Part shown: positions 4,666 to 36,164 of the stretch, piece by piece
How positions within the stretch are numbered: the first letter of the stretch is position 1
How the letters are laid out: each line of letters begins with the position of its first letter
Origin: a virus
Taxonomy: Duplodnaviria; Caudoviricetes
Length of the DNA stretch: 36,164 nucleotides
Virus record (IMG/VR): IMGVR_UViG_3300033407_000072
Location: 1 to 36,164 of that record
Direction: 5' to 3' (one strand)
Position numbers and translations under genes: made by a program
Notes under the pieces: generated by a model
Seen by the model: only the letters and a program-made list of their open reading frames with translations
Databases searched by the model: none
What the model was told of the DNA's origin: nothing

Positions 4666-4775
4666 GGGGCGATCACCCGGTATCCGATGATCGAAGCGCC
4701 CACGACCTCGGCAACGACCAACGCCACGAAGATGAGCGACGCCAGGATCAGCACCGCACACCCGGGGGCCCTCAT
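4662..4775 (-). CDS. Small membrane peptide (MRAPGCAVLILASLIFVALVVAEVVGASIIGYRVIAP)
   Basis: Single hydrophobic helix; ATGA overlap with the methyltransferase stop. Confidence 0.6.
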   Translation of the reverse strand: MRAPGCAVLILASLIFVALVVAEVVGASIIGYRVIAP

Positions 4776-5695
4776 CGCGCGACCTCGCCCTCTTTGCGGA
4801 ACGTCTCCCAAGCTCGAGCGGCGCCTCCGGAGCCGGGGAACAGGTCGACGAAGGTGTCGTCGGGTGCGGCGGCGAGTAGATCGAAGATCCAGAAGAGGAA
4901 TGCGGCCGGTTTGGCACCGACGACGCGCTTCGGGTCTGTCGTGCGGGCCCGCGCGACGTATTGGAGGGTGTCCACGCGCCGATCGGTGGTGCCGGCCCAA
5001 AGGGGGCGGGCCGGGTGGTAGATGACGGGCTCCCAGCCGTTGAGGGGATGCCAGGAGGCAGTCGGCCGTTCCCCCCGGTGCCAGGAGGCCACCCGTACGT
5101 CGGGGGGGCAGAGAGCGAGGACGTCGCGGAGCGCCGGCACACTCGTCGACAGCGCCCAGCCGTCGTATTCGGCCGTGAGCGACGCAACAAGACTGACGAG
5201 ATCGACTTCACCGGCGAAGTCAGGATGGTCCCGGTAATAGCGGGCGGAGAGCCCCGGATAGGGCGGATCGGCGTAGGCGAGACGGAGCGGAGCCGTCGCG
5301 TCCTCCGGCGTGGTCGACGGATCGCGGCGGTGGGAAACGAAACGGTGGTTCGCTTGTCGGCACCGTTTGGAGCAGTAGACAGAATCGCGGCGGGCGTTGG
5401 GCCGGATGGGGTCCTCGCACCATGCGCAGACCCGTCGTGAACCGATCGCACCGCGACGCGTCGTGTAGGTCCTAAACGACGCGTCGACCTGGTCCTCACG
5501 ACGCGTCGTGTCGGGATCCTGAAGCGACGTGTCGTGTGGTGCGGCCGCACTTCGCGACACGTCGTCGCGCTGCAGGGTCGACGTGTCGCTGGTGGCCACA
5601 GACGACGCGTCGTCTTTCACCACGGCGAAACGCGACGGGTTGCGGGCGTACCCCTCGCGGGGTATGTCAAGGCGGGTATGAGTCACGCCGGCCAT
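4772..5695 (-). CDS. Amino-DNA methyltransferase (N6-mA/N4-mC, beta-type motif order) with N-terminal Zn finger; start uncertain
   Basis: Motif IV YADPPY precedes motif X/I (KP...FVDLFPGSG). Zn finger CAWC...YCSKRCR. Very short region between WEPVIY and KP. The 5' part reads through the palindrome array. Confidence 0.85.
   Translation of the reverse strand: MAGVTHTRLDIPREGYARNPSRFAVVKDDASSVATSDTSTLQRDDVSRSAAAPHDTSLQDPDTTRREDQVDASFRTYTTRRGAIGSRRVCAWCEDPIRPNARRDSVYCSKRCRQANHRFVSHRRDPSTTPEDATAPLRLAYADPPYPGLSARYYRDHPDFAGEVDLVSLVASLTAEYDGWALSTSVPALRDVLALCPPDVRVASWHRGERPTASWHPLNGWEPVIYHPARPLWAGTTDRRVDTLQYVARARTTDPKRVVGAKPAAFLFWIFDLLAAAPDDTFVDLFPGSGGAARAWETFRKEGEVAR
5428..5635. repeat. Array of palindromic 10-bp repeats CGACRYGTCG with unique 12-20 nt spacers
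   Basis: Consensus copies at 5454, 5477, 5499, 5525, 5555, 5579, 5603; degenerate copies at 5428 (AGACCCGTCG) and 5626 (CGAAACGCGA). Confidence 0.92.
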
Positions 5696-6077: not shown

Positions 6078-6208
6078 CGCGCACGCTCCCCGACCGTCCC
6101 GTTGGCGAACAGCTGAGCGACGGCGAGACGGTCGCGGAAACGGCACAGAGGCGTACGGCAGCGGGTCACGTCATCGAGGACCGACAGGAGGGTGATGACG
6201 GCGGTCAT
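6074..6208 (-). CDS. Small hypothetical protein (MTAVITLLSVLDDV..., 44 aa)
   Basis: Fills the gap with ATGA overlaps on both sides. Confidence 0.5.
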   Translation of the reverse strand: MTAVITLLSVLDDVTRCRTPLCRFRDRLAVAQLFANGTVGERAR

Positions 6209-6408
6209 GCGGCGAGCTCGAGGGATTTGGCCCAGCGGCGGATGGTGGCTTCGTGGAGGGGGACGCTGGTACGTTCACGGATTTCGATGGTGATGTCCGT
6301 GTAGGACTTGCCCTGTTCGATGAGTTGGGGAAAGAGAGTCGAGAAGGTGGTCCCCTGGTCCTCGAGGGCGGCTTCGACCATCCGATACACGGTGCTCTTC
6401 GGTGCCAT
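6205..6408 (-). CDS. Cro-like HTH protein
   Basis: 67 aa, HTH-like SYTDITIEIRERTSVPLHEATIRRW; first gene of the lytic operon, divergent from the repressor; ends in LAA. Confidence 0.7.
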   Translation of the reverse strand: MAPKSTVYRMVEAALEDQGTTFSTLFPQLIEQGKSYTDITIEIRERTSVPLHEATIRRWAKSLELAA

Positions 6409-6412
6409 GAGA

Positions 6413-6446
6413 GTGCATCATGCACGATTACAGGCGCAATTGTCAA
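6413..6446 (-). promoter_or_regulatory. Early lytic promoter (probably leaderless) with overlapping palindrome
   Basis: Minus strand TTGACA (6446-6441), 18 nt, CATGAT (6422-6417), 8 nt, ATG. GTGCAT-C-ATGCAC dyad at 6413-6425. Confidence 0.7.
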
Positions 6447-6492
6447 GCATTTGCGGTATCTACTGCGCTACTCATCCCACGTACTGCGCCCC

Positions 6493-6521
6493 TTGCAAGT
6501 GTTTAGCAGTTGCGATATCGT
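6493..6521 (+). promoter_or_regulatory. Repressor promoter
   Basis: TTGCAA (6493), 17 nt, TATCGT (6516); GAAAGG RBS before ATG 6571. Confidence 0.55.
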
Positions 6522-6570
6522 GCGGAGCGGCAGGAGTTGGGCGGAACGTACGAGAGAAAGGCACCCCACA

Positions 6571-7047
6571 ATGACCACCCTCGACCAGACCCCGGCAATC
6601 AGCGCCCGGCGAGCGAAGCAGGCCGAACGCATCCGGATGGCCCTCGGCAAAGCCGGCCTCTCAAACAAAGCGTTCGAAAAGGTCTCCAGCCAGCGAGGCG
6701 TTCGCCAGATCCCACGCAACCGGATCGCGACGCTGCAAGCCGGGACCGCCAAGCAGGTCCTGGACGACGAGCTCGTAACGGTCGCTATGGTGTGCGACGT
6801 CTCACTGGCCTTCATCTCAGGTGAAACCGTCACCCTCGACGGCTACGAAGCCAGTAAAGCTAATCCGGGGTATCTCAATCCTGAGACCATCAACCGTTCG
6901 CGCATCGACCACGCCATCGGCGACTGCATCGGCTGTGCCATCGACCGCAACTTCCACGTCGTGGACGAATGGAACTACCACGACCCGATCACCGGACAGA
7001 TCGAGCTGATACTCGACCTCACCGGAAATCTCGCCGAAGCCGTATAG
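6571..7047 (+). CDS. Immunity repressor (XRE-like HTH) with C-terminal extension
   Basis: AERIRMALGKAGLS...RIATLQAG...ELVTVAMVCDVSLAFISG XRE pattern; divergent from Cro-like gene and upstream of integrase. Confidence 0.75.
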   Translation: MTTLDQTPAISARRAKQAERIRMALGKAGLSNKAFEKVSSQRGVRQIPRNRIATLQAGTAKQVLDDELVTVAMVCDVSLAFISGETVTLDGYEASKANPGYLNPETINRSRIDHAIGDCIGCAIDRNFHVVDEWNYHDPITGQIELILDLTGNLAEAV

Positions 7048-7073
7048 GGCGTTCGGCCCATCGACCGTCGTGC

Positions 7074-7901
7074 ATGGGGTGCCACTATGGCCTCTTGTCC
7101 AGGTTCCGCGACCACCTCGTCGCGTCTGGATTGGCGGACAACACCATCAGGGCCTATGACCTGAGACTCCGACAAGCGTTGGAATGGTGCGACGGGGCAG
7201 ACGTCGATCTTGAGCGTGCCACAGCACTCCAACTGCGTGCACTGAGCGAAGCGTTCCCTAAGACCCACACGAGACGCAGACAGTTACGGTCCGCGTTGCG
7301 GTGGTACTACCAGATGATCGAACGACACGACTCGCCACTCGGGGCGATACAGGTCCCGAAGAAACCGCACTACCGGAACCGTGCCCTCTCCACACACGAG
7401 GCCCGGCTGCTTTCCAAGACGGCACGGCATTGGAACCCCGAAGGACTGGTCGTAACCGTCGCCCTCCACATGGCGTTGAGGGTCCACGAGATCGCCACGA
7501 TGCGGTGGGACCGGTTCGACGGGACCTGGTATCAGGTGCTCGGCAAAGGCGACGAGACGTGGCCGATGCCGGTGCATCCGAAGATCACCGCGCAGCTCCG
7601 CACCTATCGTCGCGACGGCCCGTACCTGTTCCCCGGGTCACGGGGCCGGGAGCATGTCACCGACACAACCGTGTGGAAGTGGGTACGCAAGGTGTCGAAC
7701 GAGGCGGGGATCGGCGACGTGCAGCCGCATGTGCTCCGCCACACGGCGATCACCAACGCGAACGACCACACGCCGGACATCGCAGCGGTGGCCCGGTTCG
7801 CGCGGCATGTCCGGTTGGAAACTACCAGGCTGTATGTGCGGACCACCGACGAACAGGTCGAGGGTGTCGTGTGGGCGATCGACTACGAAGAGGACCAATA
7901 G
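7074..7901 (+). CDS. int: Tyrosine recombinase/integrase (XerC-like, no arm-binding domain)
   Basis: Catalytic R (ALRVHE), K (GKG), HxxR (PHVLRH), H (ARH), Y (TRLY); ~275 aa from ATG 7074. Confidence 0.93.
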   Translation: MGCHYGLLSRFRDHLVASGLADNTIRAYDLRLRQALEWCDGADVDLERATALQLRALSEAFPKTHTRRRQLRSALRWYYQMIERHDSPLGAIQVPKKPHYRNRALSTHEARLLSKTARHWNPEGLVVTVALHMALRVHEIATMRWDRFDGTWYQVLGKGDETWPMPVHPKITAQLRTYRRDGPYLFPGSRGREHVTDTTVWKWVRKVSNEAGIGDVQPHVLRHTAITNANDHTPDIAAVARFARHVRLETTRLYVRTTDEQVEGVVWAIDYEEDQ

Positions 7902-15471: not shown

Positions 15472-18311
15472 CAGCCTGCCACCTCGACTGTCCGACTGAT
15501 ACCGGCGAGGAGCAGACCTTCCTGGACGCCTCGCGCGACGTCGACGGTGGACGCCGGGTTGTACACGTGGACCGCGACCGGACCGGCCGGCCCGCCGCCA
15601 CCGGTGAAGGCGGCGATCATCCGTTGCACATCCGTATTGGAGAAGACGGTGCCCCGGTCGCCGGGGATCATCAGCAGCTCCGGCCGGTCCCCTTCTCCGA
15701 CCCGGTAGTGGAAGTCGGCCATGACCGGACCGCCATGCGCCCGGGGGATAGCGGTGGAACCCGACGCCGACGTGCCGCTACGGACGGTGGGGGTGGGCAG
15801 GTCGAAGTCGAAGCGGACGTTCTCGGCGAAAGCCTGCGAGAAGATGTCGGCGATGCTGCGGCCGGCCCGCATCATCTCTTCGAGCGAGTCGATCGATGTG
15901 ACACCGGCCGCGAGGTCGCGGACAGCGTCGAAGCCGATCTCGTCGGCGTGCTCACGGATGAAGTCGGCGATCCCGTCGTCGATGCTCTCCCCGATTTCGA
16001 CTCCCGCATCGGACGCGAAGGTGAGGGACGCCGGTGAGGTGACCCCGGCCGCCAGGTTTTTGATCTGGTCTTCGGAGAGGCGGCCGGCGTTGCGGTTGAT
16101 GAACTCGCCGATCCCGCCGAACAGTTTCAGCGACACTTCCTGACCGAGGGCGTCGAACCCGGCGGCGATGAACTGTTGGCGGAGGGCGTTCTCGTAGGCG
16201 GTCGCCGTGTTCTGTGCGGACGTTTCGGCGGCGGCCACCTGGTCGAGGTTGTCGAGCAGCTCGAGGACGAGATCGTTCAGTCCGGGACCGACCGCTTCGA
16301 TCCGGTCGGCCATGGCGCCGAAGCCGGCGTCGGTGAGGCGGGTCAGGTTCGCTTCGAACTCGACCTGCTGTTCGAAGCTGCCGAGGAAGTTGGAGAGGAA
16401 CTCGTCCATGGAGATGTCGAGTTGTTCTACGGCGCCCTTCATCGGGTCGATCTGCCGGCCGATCTCGTTGACCCGGTCCCGGAACCCGGCGAGCTCCACT
16501 TCGATGCGGGCGAGCGAGTCGAATGGCTGACCTTCGAACAGGTCCGATCCGAAGATCTCCGTGATCGACTGGCCGGTCTCCTCGGCGGCGGCGAGGAGGT
16601 CAGCGAAGGTGACGATCGTGTCCTCTAGCGCGCGGCGTCCCCGTTTGCTGATGTCCTCGATGTTCTCGATGAACCCGACATCGCCGGAGAAGGCAATCTC
16701 GTCTTTGAGGACTTCCAGTTCGAACCGGAGGAAGGCGACGTCGTCGGCGGCGAGACGCAGATGGGCGGAGTTGTTGAGGAACGTTTGTATGGCGTCGCCG
16801 AGGGCCCCGCCGGACAGTCCGGCGGTGGCGGCCAGCTGGCCGAACTCGCCGCGGAGGGACACCCCTTCCGAGGTGAGAGCGGAGATGGCACCGCCCAACG
16901 CGAACAGCGGGTCGACGCCGCCCTGGATCGCCGTGATCAGATCCAGGCGGGCGTACAGGCCGGCGAGTGCCTCGGTGTGGGCGGCCGCCCTCTCCGCGGC
17001 GTCGCCGGCCTGCTCGACGTCTTGGACCCGGCGTCTGAACGTTCGATCGGCGTTGCCCTCTGTTCCGACTTCCGACCACCGGGCGAACAAGTCCTCCAGT
17101 TGTAGGCTGAAGATTTCGACGGCGACCGGGAGACGGGCCAGCAAGTGGAGGGTGCCGATGATGACCCCTCCGATCTCGTCGGCAGAAGCGGACACGGACG
17201 ACGCCAACAATCCGAGCGCCGGTCCGACCCCTTCCAGGGCCTCGATCAGGTCAGGTGCGAGTTGGAGGATCTCGAGGTAGGCGGGGATCAGTTCCTCACC
17301 GAGCGCCGCCCGGGCGTTCTCGGCGGCGGCCGCCTGGATCCGGGCGAAGTTGGCCGGATCGTCGGCGGTGCGGGCGAAGTCGCCGGCTACCCGGGCGGTG
17401 TCTTCGAGGATCAGCTGGTATCGGGCGGTGACCTTGGCGGTGTCGTCGATCTCCGCCTTCGACGCGGCCAGTCCCAGTTCGAGGGCTTTCGCTTCGACCC
17501 GGGCGGCGCTGATGGACGCGCCGAACCGTTCGATCGGGTCACCCTCACCGCGCAAGGCTGCTTGGATGGCGCCGAGCGCTTCGGACACGTCAGTGTCGAA
17601 GACGGACGCCAGGTCGGCGGCCCGTTGGGTGAGTACGACGGCGGCGTTGGCGGCGGCGGTCGCTTCGAACCCGAAGTTGCGGAGCAGTGATCCGATCGGG
17701 ACGACGAGCTGCTGGAAGTCGCCGCGTGCCAGGCCGGCTGTCCGATGGACCTGTTCGCCGTAGTCGAAGACGATGTCGGCGCCTTCACCGAACGCCACGT
17801 TGACGGCGTTGACGGATTCGTTCAGGGTGTTGTAGGAGGCGATCGCCTCGCCTGCGCCTCTCAAACCGACACGCACCGCGGCGGCGATCGCTCCGACGGC
17901 GATCGCCCCGGCGATCAGCCCCTTCATCTTGGCGAAACCCTGATTGAGTCGGCCGACGCTCTGATCTACGTCGTCGGTGTTGTCCTTCGCCCGGCGCATC
18001 TCCCGTGCGAACTCGGCTGCTTCCCGCTCTGACAGGCCGAGACCGCGGGCCACCGCCCGCAGCTCGTCGTCCAGCTCCCTCGACTCCCGGACCGACTTCG
18101 ACACTGACGATGCCAGTGCGCGGGCTTCGTCTTCGGACCGGCCGATCTTTCCGGACACGTTCTTGAACGACGAGTCCAGATCGCGCGACGACGCTTCGGC
18201 TTCTTCGGCGGCGGCAGCAATGTCACGGGTGGCCCGCGCCGAGTCGCGGGCCTCCCTTTTGTACTGGCCGGTGACGAGCTCGAGGATCAGTTGGAGTCGT
18301 TCACCGGCCAT
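15471..18311 (-). CDS. Tape measure protein
   Basis: 946 aa, Ala-rich helical; LTQRAADLASVF, ALRGEGDPIERFG, RAHGGPV..YRVGE..PEL. Confidence 0.93.
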   Translation of the reverse strand: MAGERLQLILELVTGQYKREARDSARATRDIAAAAEEAEASSRDLDSSFKNVSGKIGRSEDEARALASSVSKSVRESRELDDELRAVARGLGLSEREAAEFAREMRRAKDNTDDVDQSVGRLNQGFAKMKGLIAGAIAVGAIAAAVRVGLRGAGEAIASYNTLNESVNAVNVAFGEGADIVFDYGEQVHRTAGLARGDFQQLVVPIGSLLRNFGFEATAAANAAVVLTQRAADLASVFDTDVSEALGAIQAALRGEGDPIERFGASISAARVEAKALELGLAASKAEIDDTAKVTARYQLILEDTARVAGDFARTADDPANFARIQAAAAENARAALGEELIPAYLEILQLAPDLIEALEGVGPALGLLASSVSASADEIGGVIIGTLHLLARLPVAVEIFSLQLEDLFARWSEVGTEGNADRTFRRRVQDVEQAGDAAERAAAHTEALAGLYARLDLITAIQGGVDPLFALGGAISALTSEGVSLRGEFGQLAATAGLSGGALGDAIQTFLNNSAHLRLAADDVAFLRFELEVLKDEIAFSGDVGFIENIEDISKRGRRALEDTIVTFADLLAAAEETGQSITEIFGSDLFEGQPFDSLARIEVELAGFRDRVNEIGRQIDPMKGAVEQLDISMDEFLSNFLGSFEQQVEFEANLTRLTDAGFGAMADRIEAVGPGLNDLVLELLDNLDQVAAAETSAQNTATAYENALRQQFIAAGFDALGQEVSLKLFGGIGEFINRNAGRLSEDQIKNLAAGVTSPASLTFASDAGVEIGESIDDGIADFIREHADEIGFDAVRDLAAGVTSIDSLEEMMRAGRSIADIFSQAFAENVRFDFDLPTPTVRSGTSASGSTAIPRAHGGPVMADFHYRVGEGDRPELLMIPGDRGTVFSNTDVQRMIAAFTGGGGPAGPVAVHVYNPASTVDVARGVQEGLLLAGISRTVEVAG

Positions 18312-19244: not shown

Positions 19245-19723
19245 GCGAGGACGGCGACGTCCCAGGCGATCGCCTCGGTGAGCCCCATCGGGACCCTCTT
19301 CCGGCGGGCTTCACCGCGGGGGGTGGCCCCGTCGGATTTCAGTCCGACTTCGACGTGGGCGACGTCGCAGACATCGCCGGCGGCCGGGTCGGCGCCGGCG
19401 ATGTTGCCGCCTTCGAACTTGACGATGTAGTACTCGGTCTGGTTGTCGAGCGCCGGATACGCGATCGCGCCGGTCTTCGGCTTCCAGATCTCGATCTCGA
19501 GGTTTTCGATCGAGATGGTGGAAGTCTGCTGCTTGTCCTGTGCGGTTGAGATGTCCGACGTGTCGGCGTACTGCTGGCTGCCGGCGAAGTTGACCGGGGC
19601 CGGCAGGTCGATGGTGATCTCCGTGCCGGCTGTCACTTCGGCGGCGGTCGGGGCGAGCGTGGCGGAGGCGATCGTGGTCAGCACGTACACCCGCTGTTCG
19701 AACCCCATTGGTTTGGCAGTCAT
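19241..19723 (-). CDS. Major tail (tube) protein
   Basis: 160 aa; IASATLAPTAAEVTAGTEIT motif typical of actinophage-type tail tubes; position. Confidence 0.8.
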   Translation of the reverse strand: MTAKPMGFEQRVYVLTTIASATLAPTAAEVTAGTEITIDLPAPVNFAGSQQYADTSDISTAQDKQQTSTISIENLEIEIWKPKTGAIAYPALDNQTEYYIVKFEGGNIAGADPAAGDVCDVAHVEVGLKSDGATPRGEARRKRVPMGLTEAIAWDVAVLA

Positions 19724-23792: not shown

Positions 23793-23807
23793 TGGTGGTG
23801 ACATCAG

Positions 23808-23882
23808 TTGCGGCGGCAGGATTTGAACCTGCGACCTCCAGCGCATGAGACTGGCGAGCACTCCGGGCTGCTCCACGCCGCT
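23808..23882 (-). tRNA. tRNA with CAT anticodon (fMet-like body, atypical anticodon stem; CCA not encoded)
   Basis: AGCGGCG TG GAGC AGCCCGGAGT GCTC G CCAGT CTCATGC GCTGG AGGTC GCAGG TTCAAAT CCTGC CGCCGCA A folds as a cloverleaf. Confidence 0.88.
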
Positions 23883-33467: not shown

Positions 33468-33640
33468 CTGACAGCCCTCCACATCGCCCGCCGTTTCCCA
33501 CGACGTGTCCACCACAGGCCGCCGATGCCGAGCACCCGGTCGAGCCGCAGCAGCGCCCGCCAATCGACGAACAGCCGATACGGGGCGGTCAGCCAGTCGC
33601 CGAACACCCAGCCGGTCACGTAACGGTCACGGACCCTCAC
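33464..33640 (-). CDS. Small Trp/Arg-rich hypothetical protein
   Basis: GTGA overlaps on both sides. Confidence 0.5.
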   Translation of the reverse strand: MRVRDRYVTGWVFGDWLTAPYRLFVDWRALLRLDRVLGIGGLWWTRRGKRRAMWRAVR

Positions 33641-33864
33641 AGTTCCACCGGCTGCCACGAATCCACGAACCGGGCTTCGATGTCATGCGGCCAACACGAC
33701 GAACCGGTACTGCGATGCCGGTTCTCCATCTCACAGAACCGGATGGCGTCGTCGAGGGTGCGGAACTCCCAGCAGTGACCCCGATGATCCGGACGGGCGC
33801 ATATCACCCGGTACTCGGTGTGGGCCGCCGGCGACGACCGGAACGTCACATCCGGTGCCGTCAT
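33637..33864 (-). CDS. Hypothetical protein (MTAPDVTFRS...)
   Basis: ATGA overlap; 75 aa. Confidence 0.6.
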   Translation of the reverse strand: MTAPDVTFRSSPAAHTEYRVICARPDHRGHCWEFRTLDDAIRFCEMENRHRSTGSSCWPHDIEARFVDSWQPVEL

Positions 33865-34286: not shown

Positions 34287-34681
34287 CCGGACACCCGCTG
34301 TTCGGCGGCCGTCCGGTACTGGTCGGCACGGCCCATCCACACATGCCGGCACGCCTGGTTGGCGCATGTCAATTCGACGTAGCCGTTGCCGACGTCGTCG
34401 ATTCCGAACGTCCGATGCAGACAATGCGCCGGATCAGCTGACAGTTCCCGCATCACTGTCTTCGTGGCGGCGAGCAGCCGGGAAGGCGACGGCGCCCGAT
34501 CATGACCGGCTTCGAACCAGCGGGCCGCCGCCAGTTCGAGGGCGGTGACAGTCGTCGAATGCTGAAAGTCCGCATAGAGGACCTCCGGGTCCTGGGCCCA
34601 GGTGCGGGAGCTCGGCCAGCGGGCCCGGATCCAATCGACAGTCCGTGCGAAGTCGTGGCCGGTGAGACGAGGACGGGTCAT
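34283..34681 (-). CDS. Putative helicase loader/inhibitor (G39P-like)
   Basis: Directly downstream of the initiator; I.A.WP...W...A..RW......PSP..L pattern. Confidence 0.55.
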   Translation of the reverse strand: MTRPRLTGHDFARTVDWIRARWPSSRTWAQDPEVLYADFQHSTTVTALELAAARWFEAGHDRAPSPSRLLAATKTVMRELSADPAHCLHRTFGIDDVGNGYVELTCANQACRHVWMGRADQYRTAAEQRVSG

Positions 34682-35700
34682 GCCGACGCCACCTCCGACG
34701 AACATGCCGGACAAGGGATCGGATGGTCCACTCCGACGTCGTGGGCCAGGTCCTCGTCGGTGAACGGGACGAGGCGGCCGTCGAGGAGGACCGCCAGTTG
34801 GCGGCGGCCGCCGCACCGGTCACAGCCTCGGCGGCTGTTCGCCTTGACAGCGGTCATCCACCAGCCCTGCGGATGGTTGATGCCCTGCCGGTCCGCCAGC
34901 TCGAGGAAGTCGACGTCGACGTCCACCCCGTCACGGCGCAACGCCGAATACGCTTCGATGACGGCTGGGACCAGCGAACGGCGTGCCCCCTCGAATGGGA
35001 TGTTCTTCAGTTCCGCCCACCGCCGCGCCAGCGTCACCGTGACCAGCTCCGGCGGGTCACCTGTCACGGCGTTCGCACGCGCCTTGGTGGTTGTTGATGG
35101 TTCTTGATGGTTCTTCCTTATAGGGACCGGCAACGGGTTGCCGGTTTGGGCGCGCTGGGTTGCCGGTTTGGGCGCGCTGGGTTGCCGGTTTGCATTCCCG
35201 TCCAATCCGGCAACGGATTGCCGCTCTGCGTGGCCGTCTGAGGGCTGTTCGGCACTCTCCGTGGATGTGATGACGGTACCGTCATCAGCAGATTCCTGAC
35301 CGGCAACCGGTTGCTGGTTAGCCGGGAGGTACCATCCGGCAGGCCGAGACCATCCGTCGTCCAGGTTCTTCACCGAGCGGCCGGCCCGCGTCGCCTCTGT
35401 CCCCCAATCGACGACCTGTGGTTCATCGGTCGGGACGTGCAGCTGGTATTGCATGGTCCGACCCTCCCGGGTCGGATGCGAACGCCGGCCGAGCCGTTCG
35501 ACGATCCCCATCGCCTCGAGCACATCGATGTTGTGACGGACGGTGCGTGGCGCCTGCTCCACCTTCTCGCCGAGGAGCTCCTCACCGGGCCAGCAGTAGC
35601 CCTCGTCGTTCGCATGATCCGCCAGCCTCAACAGGACCATTTTCAGATGGCCGGGAAGACCATGCATGTCCCACACCGCCGACATGAGACGGATACTCAC
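34678..35700 (-). CDS. Replication initiator (N-terminal HTH, lambda O-like organisation)
   Basis: MSIRLMSAVW...KMVLLRLADHANDEGYCWPG...RTVR...LE..GIV; iteron-bearing central linker. Confidence 0.88.
   Translation of the reverse strand: MSIRLMSAVWDMHGLPGHLKMVLLRLADHANDEGYCWPGEELLGEKVEQAPRTVRHNIDVLEAMGIVERLGRRSHPTREGRTMQYQLHVPTDEPQVVDWGTEATRAGRSVKNLDDGWSRPAGWYLPANQQPVAGQESADDGTVITSTESAEQPSDGHAERQSVAGLDGNANRQPSAPKPATQRAQTGNPLPVPIRKNHQEPSTTTKARANAVTGDPPELVTVTLARRWAELKNIPFEGARRSLVPAVIEAYSALRRDGVDVDVDFLELADRQGINHPQGWWMTAVKANSRRGCDRCGGRRQLAVLLDGRLVPFTDEDLAHDVGVDHPIPCPACSSEVASA
35088..35320. repeat. Candidate replication origin: iterons and AT-richer flank inside the initiator gene
   Basis: 22-bp repeat GGGTTGCCGGTTTGGGCGCGCT at 35135 and 35157 with a partial copy at 35179; dyads CCGGCAAC-NN-(G/A)TTGC at 35127, 35207, 35300; adjacent TGGTT(G/C)TTGA repeats. 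Confidence 0.75.
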
Positions 35701-36027: not shown

Positions 36028-36164
36028 TCACGGGTCGATCAGCTGCTCAAGCAAGTCAATGGCGCTCGCGCGTAGTCCCGCAACGGTGGGCGCTAGCGCG
36101 GCCCGAGCGGCGTCCCGAGCGGCGTCCCGAGCGGCGTCCCGAGCGGCGGCCCGAGCGGCGGCCC
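36028..36164 (-). CDS. C-terminal part of the junction-spanning repeat protein (...AAARAAARDAARDAARDAARAALAPTVAGLRASAIDLLEQLIDP*)
   Basis: In frame with 1..472 if the ends are joined; TGA at 36028-36030. Confidence 0.8.
   Translation of the reverse strand, partial: AAARAAARDAARDAARDAARAALAPTVAGLRASAIDLLEQLIDP
36102..36164. repeat. 12-bp tandem repeat CCCGAGCGGCG(T/G), about 5 copies
   Basis: Directly visible up to the last base. Confidence 0.9.

Follow-up and report, generated by a model that had tools for sequence, protein, structure and literature searches.

To our knowledge, known DNA methyltransferases read their target with protein, and enzymes of the beta class read one motif each. 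The beta class is defined by the motif order IV-TRD-I, in which TRD stands for the target recognition domain (PMC7544214). Here, a locus is described in which a gene with the predicted fold of this class carries, within its own reading frame, an array of palindromic repeats whose short spacers hold restriction and methylation motifs. It lies in the virus record IMGVR_UViG_3300033407_000072 (Caudoviricetes), a stretch of 36,164 bases that was analysed whole and is referred to below as the window. In this array and in those of homologous genes, the eighth base after the repeat half-site YGTCG is, on at least one strand of nearly every spacer, a C or an A, a rule of register and not of centring.

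The beta-class enzymes M.BceJIV, CcrM, M1.MboII, M.RsrI and M.PvuII share the motif order and the fold of the phage protein, which differs from them in its low identity (14-16%), a much shorter TRD region, a fused C4 zinc finger and the DNA arrays. Phages SPR and phi3T encode C5 methyltransferases, recognised by a C5 PC motif, in which one phage enzyme covers several host motifs by means of swappable protein TRDs; the present protein instead has a DPPY motif and a 35-residue loop, and its variable modules are DNA spacers. In phage Mu, mom is gated by host Dam methylation. The Mu Com/Mom pair is similar in combining a zinc-finger protein with a tightly controlled anti-restriction DNA modifier (PMC3299994), but Com acts as a regulator in its own right and Mom is an enzyme of another kind, whereas here the finger is fused and a DNA element lists many motifs at a fixed register. 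A further likeness is seen in M.EcoGII, Hia5, Hin1523 and Nma1821, which are phage-borne, confer multi-enzyme protection and possess little or no sequence-reading TRD (PMC3299994, PMC7544214). M.EcoGII and Hia5 methylate adenine in nearly every sequence context. Enzymes of the Hia5 type are Dam-related and adenine-only, and the sections of PMC3299994 drawn on here make no mention of an array beside them, whereas 84% of the targets catalogued at the present loci are C and are spelled in DNA.

A repeat-spacer array next to a phage nucleic-acid enzyme, with a fixed offset from handle to base, also recalls the TIGR-Tas, CRISPR and box C/D systems. CRISPR repeats are about 21-48 nt in length and their spacers are of near-constant length, while box C/D guides follow a fixed-offset rule from their handle. 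Unlike these systems, the present one has no Nop or Cas protein, its repeat is a 10-bp palindrome with a period of 22-30 bp set by the motif, both orientations are used, its spacers are short motifs with free flanks, and the evidence points to DNA. In TIGR-Tas, a Nop-domain protein is accompanied by an array of dual repeats from which 36-nt units are processed (Faure et al. 2025, PMC12045711); here, a methyltransferase fold and a single type of palindromic repeat are found instead. The initial annotation of the window had proposed a CRISPR-like memory. The array has 10-bp repeats and spacers of 10-22 nt whose length tracks the motif, no Cas gene was matched among the 30-31 window open reading frames (ORFs) scanned, and 110 spacers showed 2.37 mismatches to their own genome vs 2.51 to others (p 0.096, three exact). 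With no clear protospacer signal in the phages' own genomes and no conserved partner gene (at most 17 of 158 loci), the proposal gained no support. Repetitive extragenic palindromic (REP)-type elements are scattered in many copies over host chromosomes. The present repeats differ from them: 31 host genomes have 53 paired repeats, of which 49 are located inside the gene or, by our reading, within about 25 kb of it, and solitary host copies lack the register. No description of array-listed methyltransferase targets was found in the literature searched, the scope of which excluded subscription journals, REBASE and bioRxiv supplements.

The +8 register and the motif catalogue

The window array was recovered at 5428-5642 much as first annotated, with seven CGACRYGTCG palindromes, two degenerate flanking copies and eight unique spacers (Table 1). 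It lies in frame at the start of the ORF at 4772-5695 (-), before the C4 zinc finger. The window holds eight copies of CGACRYGTCG against 1.41 expected, a number reached by none of 100 shuffles. The eighth copy stands alone at 19556-19565, and its flanks have no catalogued motif at +8. All eight spacers place a catalogued target C or A at +8 on at least one strand and seven of them do so on both, compared with 7.3% and 0.9%, respectively, in random windows of the same phage; the motif list used here was drawn from the spacers of the family, including those of the window. In at least four spacers, the target is the very base reported as modified by single-molecule real-time (SMRT) sequencing in rows of PMC4752239: ggATcc of Frankia sp. 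DC12 (spacer 5509-5524) and cTgcAg (5565-5578), both with N6-methyladenine (m6A), and tgGCca (5589-5602) and cnCcryggyg of Cellulomonas sp. KRMCY2 (5613-5632), both with N4-methylcytosine (m4C).

The initial annotation had emphasised that six of the eight sites were exactly centred. Under a strict rule that asks for a palindrome, or for GGWCC/CCWGG, in the exact centre (null 2.6% per spacer), five are, and CCACGG in the re-parsed last spacer makes a sixth; the PstI and the 12-nt spacers are off-centre. That last spacer had been given a wrong boundary and read as an HphI site (TCACC); it is 20 nt and not 13 nt long, and its motif is CACCACGGCG (CRCCRYGGYG, core CCRYGG). Exact centring was rejected as a rule, as it is a by-product of two opposed +8 registers. 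The restriction-site label is by itself weak evidence, because Biopython's REBASE-derived list names an enzyme for 56 of the 64 palindromic hexamers; the register is the stronger pattern.

The register was then followed through homologous loci, taken as the best 80 of 228, 193 and 467 loci. The discovery set comprised 158 loci parsed of 162 and a held-out metagenome set 76 of 80, with four dropped from each for want of a catalytic motif match. The 464 raw discovery units were reduced to 338 unique spacers (inner halves with at most one mismatch, 10-22 nt). C or A was found at +8 on the sense strand in 85% of these and on the antisense strand in 87%; both strands complied in 244 of 338 (1000 shuffles: mean 82.5, maximum 107) and one or other strand in 337. 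The held-out spacers behaved alike, with 112 of 176 in register on both strands (300 shuffles: mean 42.6, maximum 64) and 173 on either, as did distal units (16/21 and 21/21). As the three sets are kin, these counts are not independent events. Near 234 genes, a motif target stood at +8 for 1151 of 2475 anchors, vs 124-271 at other offsets; 966 of these targets are C and 185 are A (84% C), with 606 on the sense and 545 on the antisense strand. The smallest unit consists of a single half-site YGTCG and a motif, may face either way and needs no second repeat: intact outward-facing half-sites at array ends obeyed the rule in 93 of 142 cases, although some of these may face a repeat too decayed for the parser. 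Such a constant +8 register would be expected of a system that works with guides.

The length of a spacer tracks where its motif has the target base (in square brackets). It is 12 nt for GGAT[C]C, CTGC[A]G and GTCG[A]C, 13 nt for GGW[C]C, 14 nt for GG[C]C, AG[C]T and AGT[A]CT, 16 nt for GG[A]TCC and GA[C]GTC, 18 nt for CR[C]CGGYG, and 20 nt for G[C]GGCCGC and CR[C]CRYGGYG; the positions in GGAT[C]C and GTCG[A]C are those we take to be modified. A palindrome of at least six paired bases was present in 87% of the 338 spacers and in 43% of shuffles, which bears out the expectation that spacers would be variable and enriched in restriction and methylation motifs.

The +8 base was compared with the modified bases in supplementary tables S3 and S4 of Blow et al. 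2016 (PMC4752239), searched by term. It coincides with the SMRT-modified base for 13 motifs found there, namely cTgcAg, gGwCc, caGCtg, ggATcc, agTAct, tgGCca, cgGCcg, cTcgAg, cCwGg, cCGg, gCwGc, gcCGgc and cnCcryggyg. Among held-out spacers, 119 of 176 have such a base at +8, vs 20-78 at other offsets and 30.7 in shuffles, in a comparison that is not blind because the search terms came from the discovery motifs. CRCCRYGGYG, with its third base (C) at +8, is matched by 16 of 36 twenty-base spacers and agrees in motif and base with the Cellulomonas m4C motif (PMC4752239 rows). Several motifs are extended, to AGGWCCT (27/34), ACCWGGT (17/21), CGTCGACG (6/8) and CGCCGGCG (27/42), the sites of Sse8647I, SexAI, SgrDI and MreI, respectively, and GCCCGGGC is the SrfI site; for TCGSCGA and CRCCRYGGYG, Biopython's REBASE-derived list holds no enzyme. 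Catalogues differ between lineages, GGATCC being listed in 10 of 12 Microbacteriaceae loci vs none of 14 from Streptosporangiales, and AGCT in 1 of 12 vs 10 of 14. They also differ between close proteins, as in a pair identical at 141 of 154 positions with different motifs in the same slot.

A guide in the form of RNA or a hairpin from the message, as first suggested, found no support in these data: units in register on a single strand show no strand bias (sense/antisense 55/50 and 30/38), neighbouring repeats show no covariation (C-A vs T-G oppositions 57 vs 48, Fisher p 0.12) and no G-U bias, and solitary half-sites obey the rule. A hairpin between neighbouring repeats was rejected on the near equality of these oppositions. 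An apparent stem extension in spacers of 18-20 nt is more plausibly explained by a preference for YGT following the anchor at either end. The degenerate positions of single-register units favour A over T (33 vs 11), which may hint at wobble pairing or strand-specific deamination and, given shared ancestry, is a hint only. A scan of the array against Rfam gave no match at cut-off, with two chance miRNA hits far below it. In array-bearing phages, solitary repeats have a target at +8 in 18 of 72 cases, some on both sides, vs 1-8 at other offsets; no such register was seen for those of finger-less phages (2/20) or host chromosomes (3/56). A single half-site that works in either orientation fits a protein anchored on duplex DNA and flipping the base at +8, and the evidence points to a double-stranded DNA element rather than a processed sense RNA. 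The presence of arrays at four places in the gene and at 10-21 kb from it argues against simple autoregulation.

Table 1. Array and methyltransferase gene in window coordinates, with target bases in square brackets.
Feature	Position	Strand	Details
Zinc-finger beta-class amino-methyltransferase-fold gene	4772..5695	-	307 aa; first ~89 residues are translated array
SAM-binding motif I, DLFPGSG	4826..4846	-	residue 284
WEPVIY, 35-residue TRD-position loop, GAKP	4907..5035	-	loop houses the array in many homologues
Catalytic motif IV, DPPY	5258..5269	-	residue 143
C4 zinc finger and basic helix (CxWC..R.D..CSxRCRQ)	5330..5428	-	lower bound approximate
Repeat-spacer array	5428..5642	none	7 exact CGACRYGTCG and 2 end repeats, 8 spacers
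Exact repeats (start positions)	5454, 5477, 5499, 5525, 5555, 5579, 5603		span 5454-5612
End repeats	5428-5437 and 5633-5642		degenerate in outward halves only
Spacer, 16 nt	5438..5453	both	CG[A]TCG; targets 5445 +, 5446 -
Spacer, 13 nt	5464..5476	both	AGGW[C]CT; targets 5471 +, 5469 -; Sse8647I/AvaII-type
Spacer, 12 nt, double duty	5487..5498	each	GGT[C]C on + (5494), AC[C]AGGT on - (5491); AvaII-, SexAI/EcoRII-type
Spacer, 16 nt	5509..5524	both	GG[A]TCC; targets 5516 +, 5517 -
Spacer, 20 nt	5535..5554	both	G[C]GGCCGC; targets 5542 +, 5547 -; NotI site
Spacer, 14 nt	5565..5578	-	CTGC[A]G; in register on - strand only (5571)
Spacer, 14 nt	5589..5602	both	TGG[C]CA; targets 5596 +, 5595 -
Spacer, 20 nt	5613..5632	both	CR[C]CRYGGYG; targets 5620 +, 5625 -

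The predicted methyltransferase family and the placing of its arrays

The encoded protein has the motif order IV (DPPY)-TRD-I that defines the beta class (PMC7544214). Among 139 homologues, D and Y of motif IV are invariant, and D, P, G and G of the S-adenosylmethionine (SAM)-binding motif I are conserved at 90% or more, as are the four cysteines, the tryptophan, two arginines and the glutamine of the finger. The window finger has its cysteines in CAWC (5428-5417) and CSKRC (5374-5360). The short TRD region of some 30 residues between WEPVIY and the KP motif and the N-terminal zinc finger, both pointed out at the start, were borne out, with 35 residues and a CxxC..CxxxC pattern. An AlphaFold2 model built from 139 sequences (predicted local distance difference test, pLDDT, 94; predicted template modelling score, pTM, 0.89) superseded one from 34 sequences that was poor in the finger (pLDDT 72). 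Its nearest folds are M.BceJIV (Z 13.0, root-mean-square deviation (rmsd) 3.1, 162 residues aligned) and CcrM (Z 12.7), followed in VIA-align by M1.MboII (Z 12.2), M.RsrI (11.2) and M.PvuII (10.4), with rmsd values of 3.0-4.1 across all five. All 12 chains with Z of at least 8 are DNA amino-methyltransferases, with M.BceJIV and CcrM on top. By motif order and predicted fold, the protein is a beta-class amino-methyltransferase, and its motifs suggest that it would methylate DNA in a SAM-dependent manner, with the C4 finger as the putative reader of the repeat. No Pfam, PHROGs or NCBIfam family matched the protein at cut-off, Pfam D12 reaching only E 0.15, and library matches to the finger were weak and treble-clef only (L24e, E 0.39; DUF2116, E 0.022, in a homologue).

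The family is unnamed and large. A homologue search gave 7,349 matches among 8,000 scored candidates, a profile search 1,880 clusters at 50% identity (finger-less relatives included), and 27 of 30 atlas matches were to unnamed clusters, of which the three displayed are mostly viral. Homologous proteins show DAS, TRR and RRV repeats, the three translations of the palindrome. Array and finger go together: strict units were present in 99 of 145 finger-bearing loci and in none of 13 finger-less loci, so that the expected co-occurrence of arrays with the methyltransferase was seen in the zinc-finger branch. At least three relaxed half-units occur in 120 of the 145, while none of the 13 has even two. 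By site, the 464 raw units comprise 118 before the finger, 19 in the linker, 178 in the TRD-position loop and 146 + 3 in or after the C-terminal tail. Six phages, as whole records, also have satellite arrays 10-21 kb from the gene, including the cultured Curtobacterium phage Elener; none was found in nine finger-less records, some of which were covered only in part. In Elener (PQ868979), the satellite array lies at 33603-33670 between the portal and protease genes, and an anchor with CTGC[A]G at +8 lies inside the conserved core of the enzyme (gp27; L162, 17378). The complete phage L193 (G021) has arrays at 5350-5504, between tape-measure and tail genes, and at 15533-15611, both far from a divergent homologue of 34% identity.

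Nine viral loci have three exact repeats: the gene lies within 2 kb in four of them, four are plain tandem repeats, and the last has a catalogue array with a weak match some 15 kb away. In the four plain loci (L167, L168, L172 and L173), the same 10-bp palindrome is repeated in tandem with spacers that do not differ, and no methyltransferase lies within 2 kb. The gene is carried by phages and plasmids. Miniimonas plasmid pS16-1 (L163, 12089-12812) has, downstream of ssb in a leading-region-like setting, an unannotated copy that is frameshifted and whose array is decayed. On Pimelobacter plasmid pB-N39 (L354, 6440-6540), where the gene comes after a relaxase, the parser found no unit, and degenerate antisense anchors with AGGA[C]CT and AC[C]AGGT at +8 were seen by eye. 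None of the neighbour families reaches beyond 17 of 158 loci, the two most frequent being a gene that we take to be primase-polymerase-like (17 loci) and an integrase (16 loci). Longer forms of the protein (P0263, P0198, P0128 and P0184) are fused to DUF5131, to a piece of C5 methylase or to extra phage zinc fingers, one of them having two fingers.

A candidate mechanism and its rivals

In the reading that we prefer, units of the array template the specificity of the methyltransferase for protective methylation elsewhere in the phage or plasmid, a proposal that we consider about as likely as not. The zinc finger would bind a repeat half-site, and the enzyme, as a dimer of the beta-class kind, would hold an array unit at +8 in one site and a target duplex in the other. 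Both duplexes would be opened, pairing that tolerates mismatches would compare them from about -4 to +7, and a matching C would become m4C or a matching A m6A. In the next host, progeny DNA would thereby be protected from restriction enzymes, and catalogues would change by mutation and by recombination between repeats rather than by spacer capture. The comparison of two duplexes is the weakest step, and no precedent for it was found; M.BceJIV is reported to bind two duplexes per dimer (PMC11380664), CcrM to open a DNA bubble, and beta-class enzymes to act as dimers (PMC7544214). As protective marks would be laid down in the producing host, for enzymes that this host may lack, both a motif and a base would be needed, as the array stores. 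In the window, the phage's own sites show no genome-wide anchoring in cis, so that protection would have to be passed on to them in trans. Of what the initial annotation had read into the locus, the link to the family and the motif enrichment were kept, while the message-derived RNA or hairpin guide and the CRISPR-like memory gained no support. That this would be the first natural programmable DNA methyltransferase, with double-stranded DNA in the element's own genome as its guides, we consider slightly less likely than not.

Several observations weigh against templated protection. M.BceJIV is reported to methylate its two sites independently, without cooperativity (PMC11380664). In phages, avoidance of listed motifs was no weaker than that of unlisted motifs (Wilcoxon p 0.23 for 18 motifs; 24 array-type and 9 finger-less records, with G013 and G020 lacking a parsed motif), in a test that is confounded because array-type phages avoid palindromes less in general, catalogued or not, and hosts differ. 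Avoidance in hosts (2 x 400 kb) agrees with what the lineages list in the case of CAGCTG and CCRYGG, but it does not do so for GGATCC, GCCGGC, GCGGCCGC or CTCGAG. No strict unit was found in 46 of the 145 zinc-finger loci, nine of which lack even a relaxed half-unit, and the 0/13 among finger-less loci represents few independent events because most of these proteins group together within a quickly built tree. Three SMRT positions (gAcgTc, cCgcGg and cGsCg) disagree with +8, and cnCcryggyg and ggATcc are among the catalogued motifs with no cognate restriction enzyme in the SMRT table (PMC4752239 rows). Whole motifs are kept in single-register units, as with the distal four bases of CRCCRYGGYG (34/41 vs 3.6%), out to +7, and with GCCCGGGC (21/30 vs 2%), while several motifs of 6-8 bp have flanks no different from the genome background; such motif-specific edges are natural for host enzymes, and a guide model needs graded pairing. 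In a separate scan, the BamHI Pfam family gave 0 and 0 matches in 201 + 201 host genomes, with a control equally silent, which makes the scan uninformative. Five Streptosporangiales chromosomes strongly avoid CTCGAG (observed/expected 0.17) and CAGCTG (0.45), which five Microbacterium chromosomes do not (L334-L353).

Motif-specific edges suit the main rival, a bait or sensor, which had been foreseen as a sensor or decoy and which we regard as unlikely. The spacers would each be a complete substrate of host enzymes, with a host methyltransferase or restriction enzyme as the reader, and the anchored phage protein, broad in its own activity and under control like that of Mu com/mom, would inspect the methyl mark at +8 and switch. 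The keeping of whole 5-10 bp motifs even where a single anchor is in register, the background flanks of several motifs, and a +8 base that is the one methylated by hosts, including in motifs with no listed restriction partner, all agree with this, as does the fact that any one instance of a degenerate motif would do. In phage Mu, moreover, a zinc-finger protein keeps a modifier that is broad and harmful under control, and methyltransferases without specificity are found in Mu-like prophages (PMC3299994). An active enzyme anchored at the array would, however, overwrite the mark, and its catalytic and SAM motifs are invariant or nearly so; the arrays occupy four positions in the gene and distant regions instead of a promoter; marks of the current host would be of little evident benefit for protection in the next; and the all-G/C variant at degenerate positions is rarer than background (1/27 vs 48%), which would not be expected of neutral bait, though shared ancestry may explain it. 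Less probable again are single-stranded guides, in the form of RNA from both strands or of single-stranded DNA during replication or transfer, with YGTCG as the handle of the +8 rule. A fixed handle offset is typical of guide RNAs, members of the beta class are described as acting on single strands and RNA (PMC7544214), and the array folds better than shuffles both as single-stranded DNA (z -4.3) and as RNA (z -2.5), but such folding follows from the palindromes alone. The absence of covariation, G-U bias and an Rfam match, and the obedience of solitary half-sites, speak against such guides, and as antisense-only units are as frequent as sense-only ones, every array would need to be transcribed both ways.

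It could also be that YGTCG(N7)C/A is the entire specificity of the enzyme and that only the array is marked, in cis, the cluster of host-like marks serving as a decoy, a loading site or a self-signal. This is the simplest reading of the geometry and would account for the few solitary units around genomes. We consider it quite improbable, since nothing would keep sites protected in this way from decaying, but the motifs are preserved whole. In the window, a target stands at +8 of none of 14 ACRYGTCG and 22 of 588 YGTCG anchors (17-37 at offsets 2-16), and outside the array there are 52 CGATCG, 163 GGWCC and 126 CCWGG sites. Neutral expansion of a palindromic repeat in floppy loops, REP-like or by slippage, with sites arising by chance in GC-rich DNA, is scarcely credible by comparison. 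The repeat has no stop codon in any frame, most palindromic hexamers (56/64) are restriction sites, and four of the nine three-repeat loci are indeed plain tandem repeats with no gene nearby, but a +8 register replicated in the held-out and distal sets contradicts this explanation, as do the 49 of 53 paired host repeats near the gene and the lack of register in host chromosomes.

Phage context and significance

The window has a GC content of 62-70% and encodes proteins with library matches to portal, capsid, terminase, tape measure, endolysin, integrase, ParB and replication initiator, which mark it as a temperate tailed phage. Most of the named homologous loci are from Actinomycetota. The same 12-bp tandem repeat occurs at both record ends (1-38 and 36090-36164), so that the contig was probably broken in a repeat near the replication genes (initiator, 34678-35700), and the record may be a nearly whole circular genome, against an estimate of 51% completeness. 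One DNA sequencing run checked for the window, possibly its source, revealed no variants or joints. Other features are a tRNA-Met (CAT) gene just upstream of the major capsid gene (23807-23882, -) and, in the early region, a sulfotransferase-family gene (874-1530, -; PF13469, E 3e-6), a possible modifying enzyme. Ahead of the integrase, in the region 6205-7901, a small gene (6205-6408, -) and a divergent gene for 158 aa (6571-7047, +) are likely to form an immunity switch; neither matched a family in library scans.

If the array programmes the enzyme, phages and plasmids would possess a new anti-restriction strategy, and with it a new route of sequence comparison between two duplexes. Writing an anchor, 7 nt and a target would then suffice to select the motif and the base that receive N4-cytosine or N6-adenine methylation, and a programmable methylase of ~220 residues could help DNA past restriction in hard-to-transform actinomycetes. 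The arrays would amount to a census of actinobacterial restriction and methylation motifs, including the enzyme-less TCGSCGA and CRCCRYGGYG. Should the array instead be a panel read by host enzymes, it would be an undescribed viral way of reading the host epigenome. Under either reading, the +8 rule brings the question within reach of a test with a few oligonucleotides, and it names both the motif and the modified base for uncharacterised host systems.

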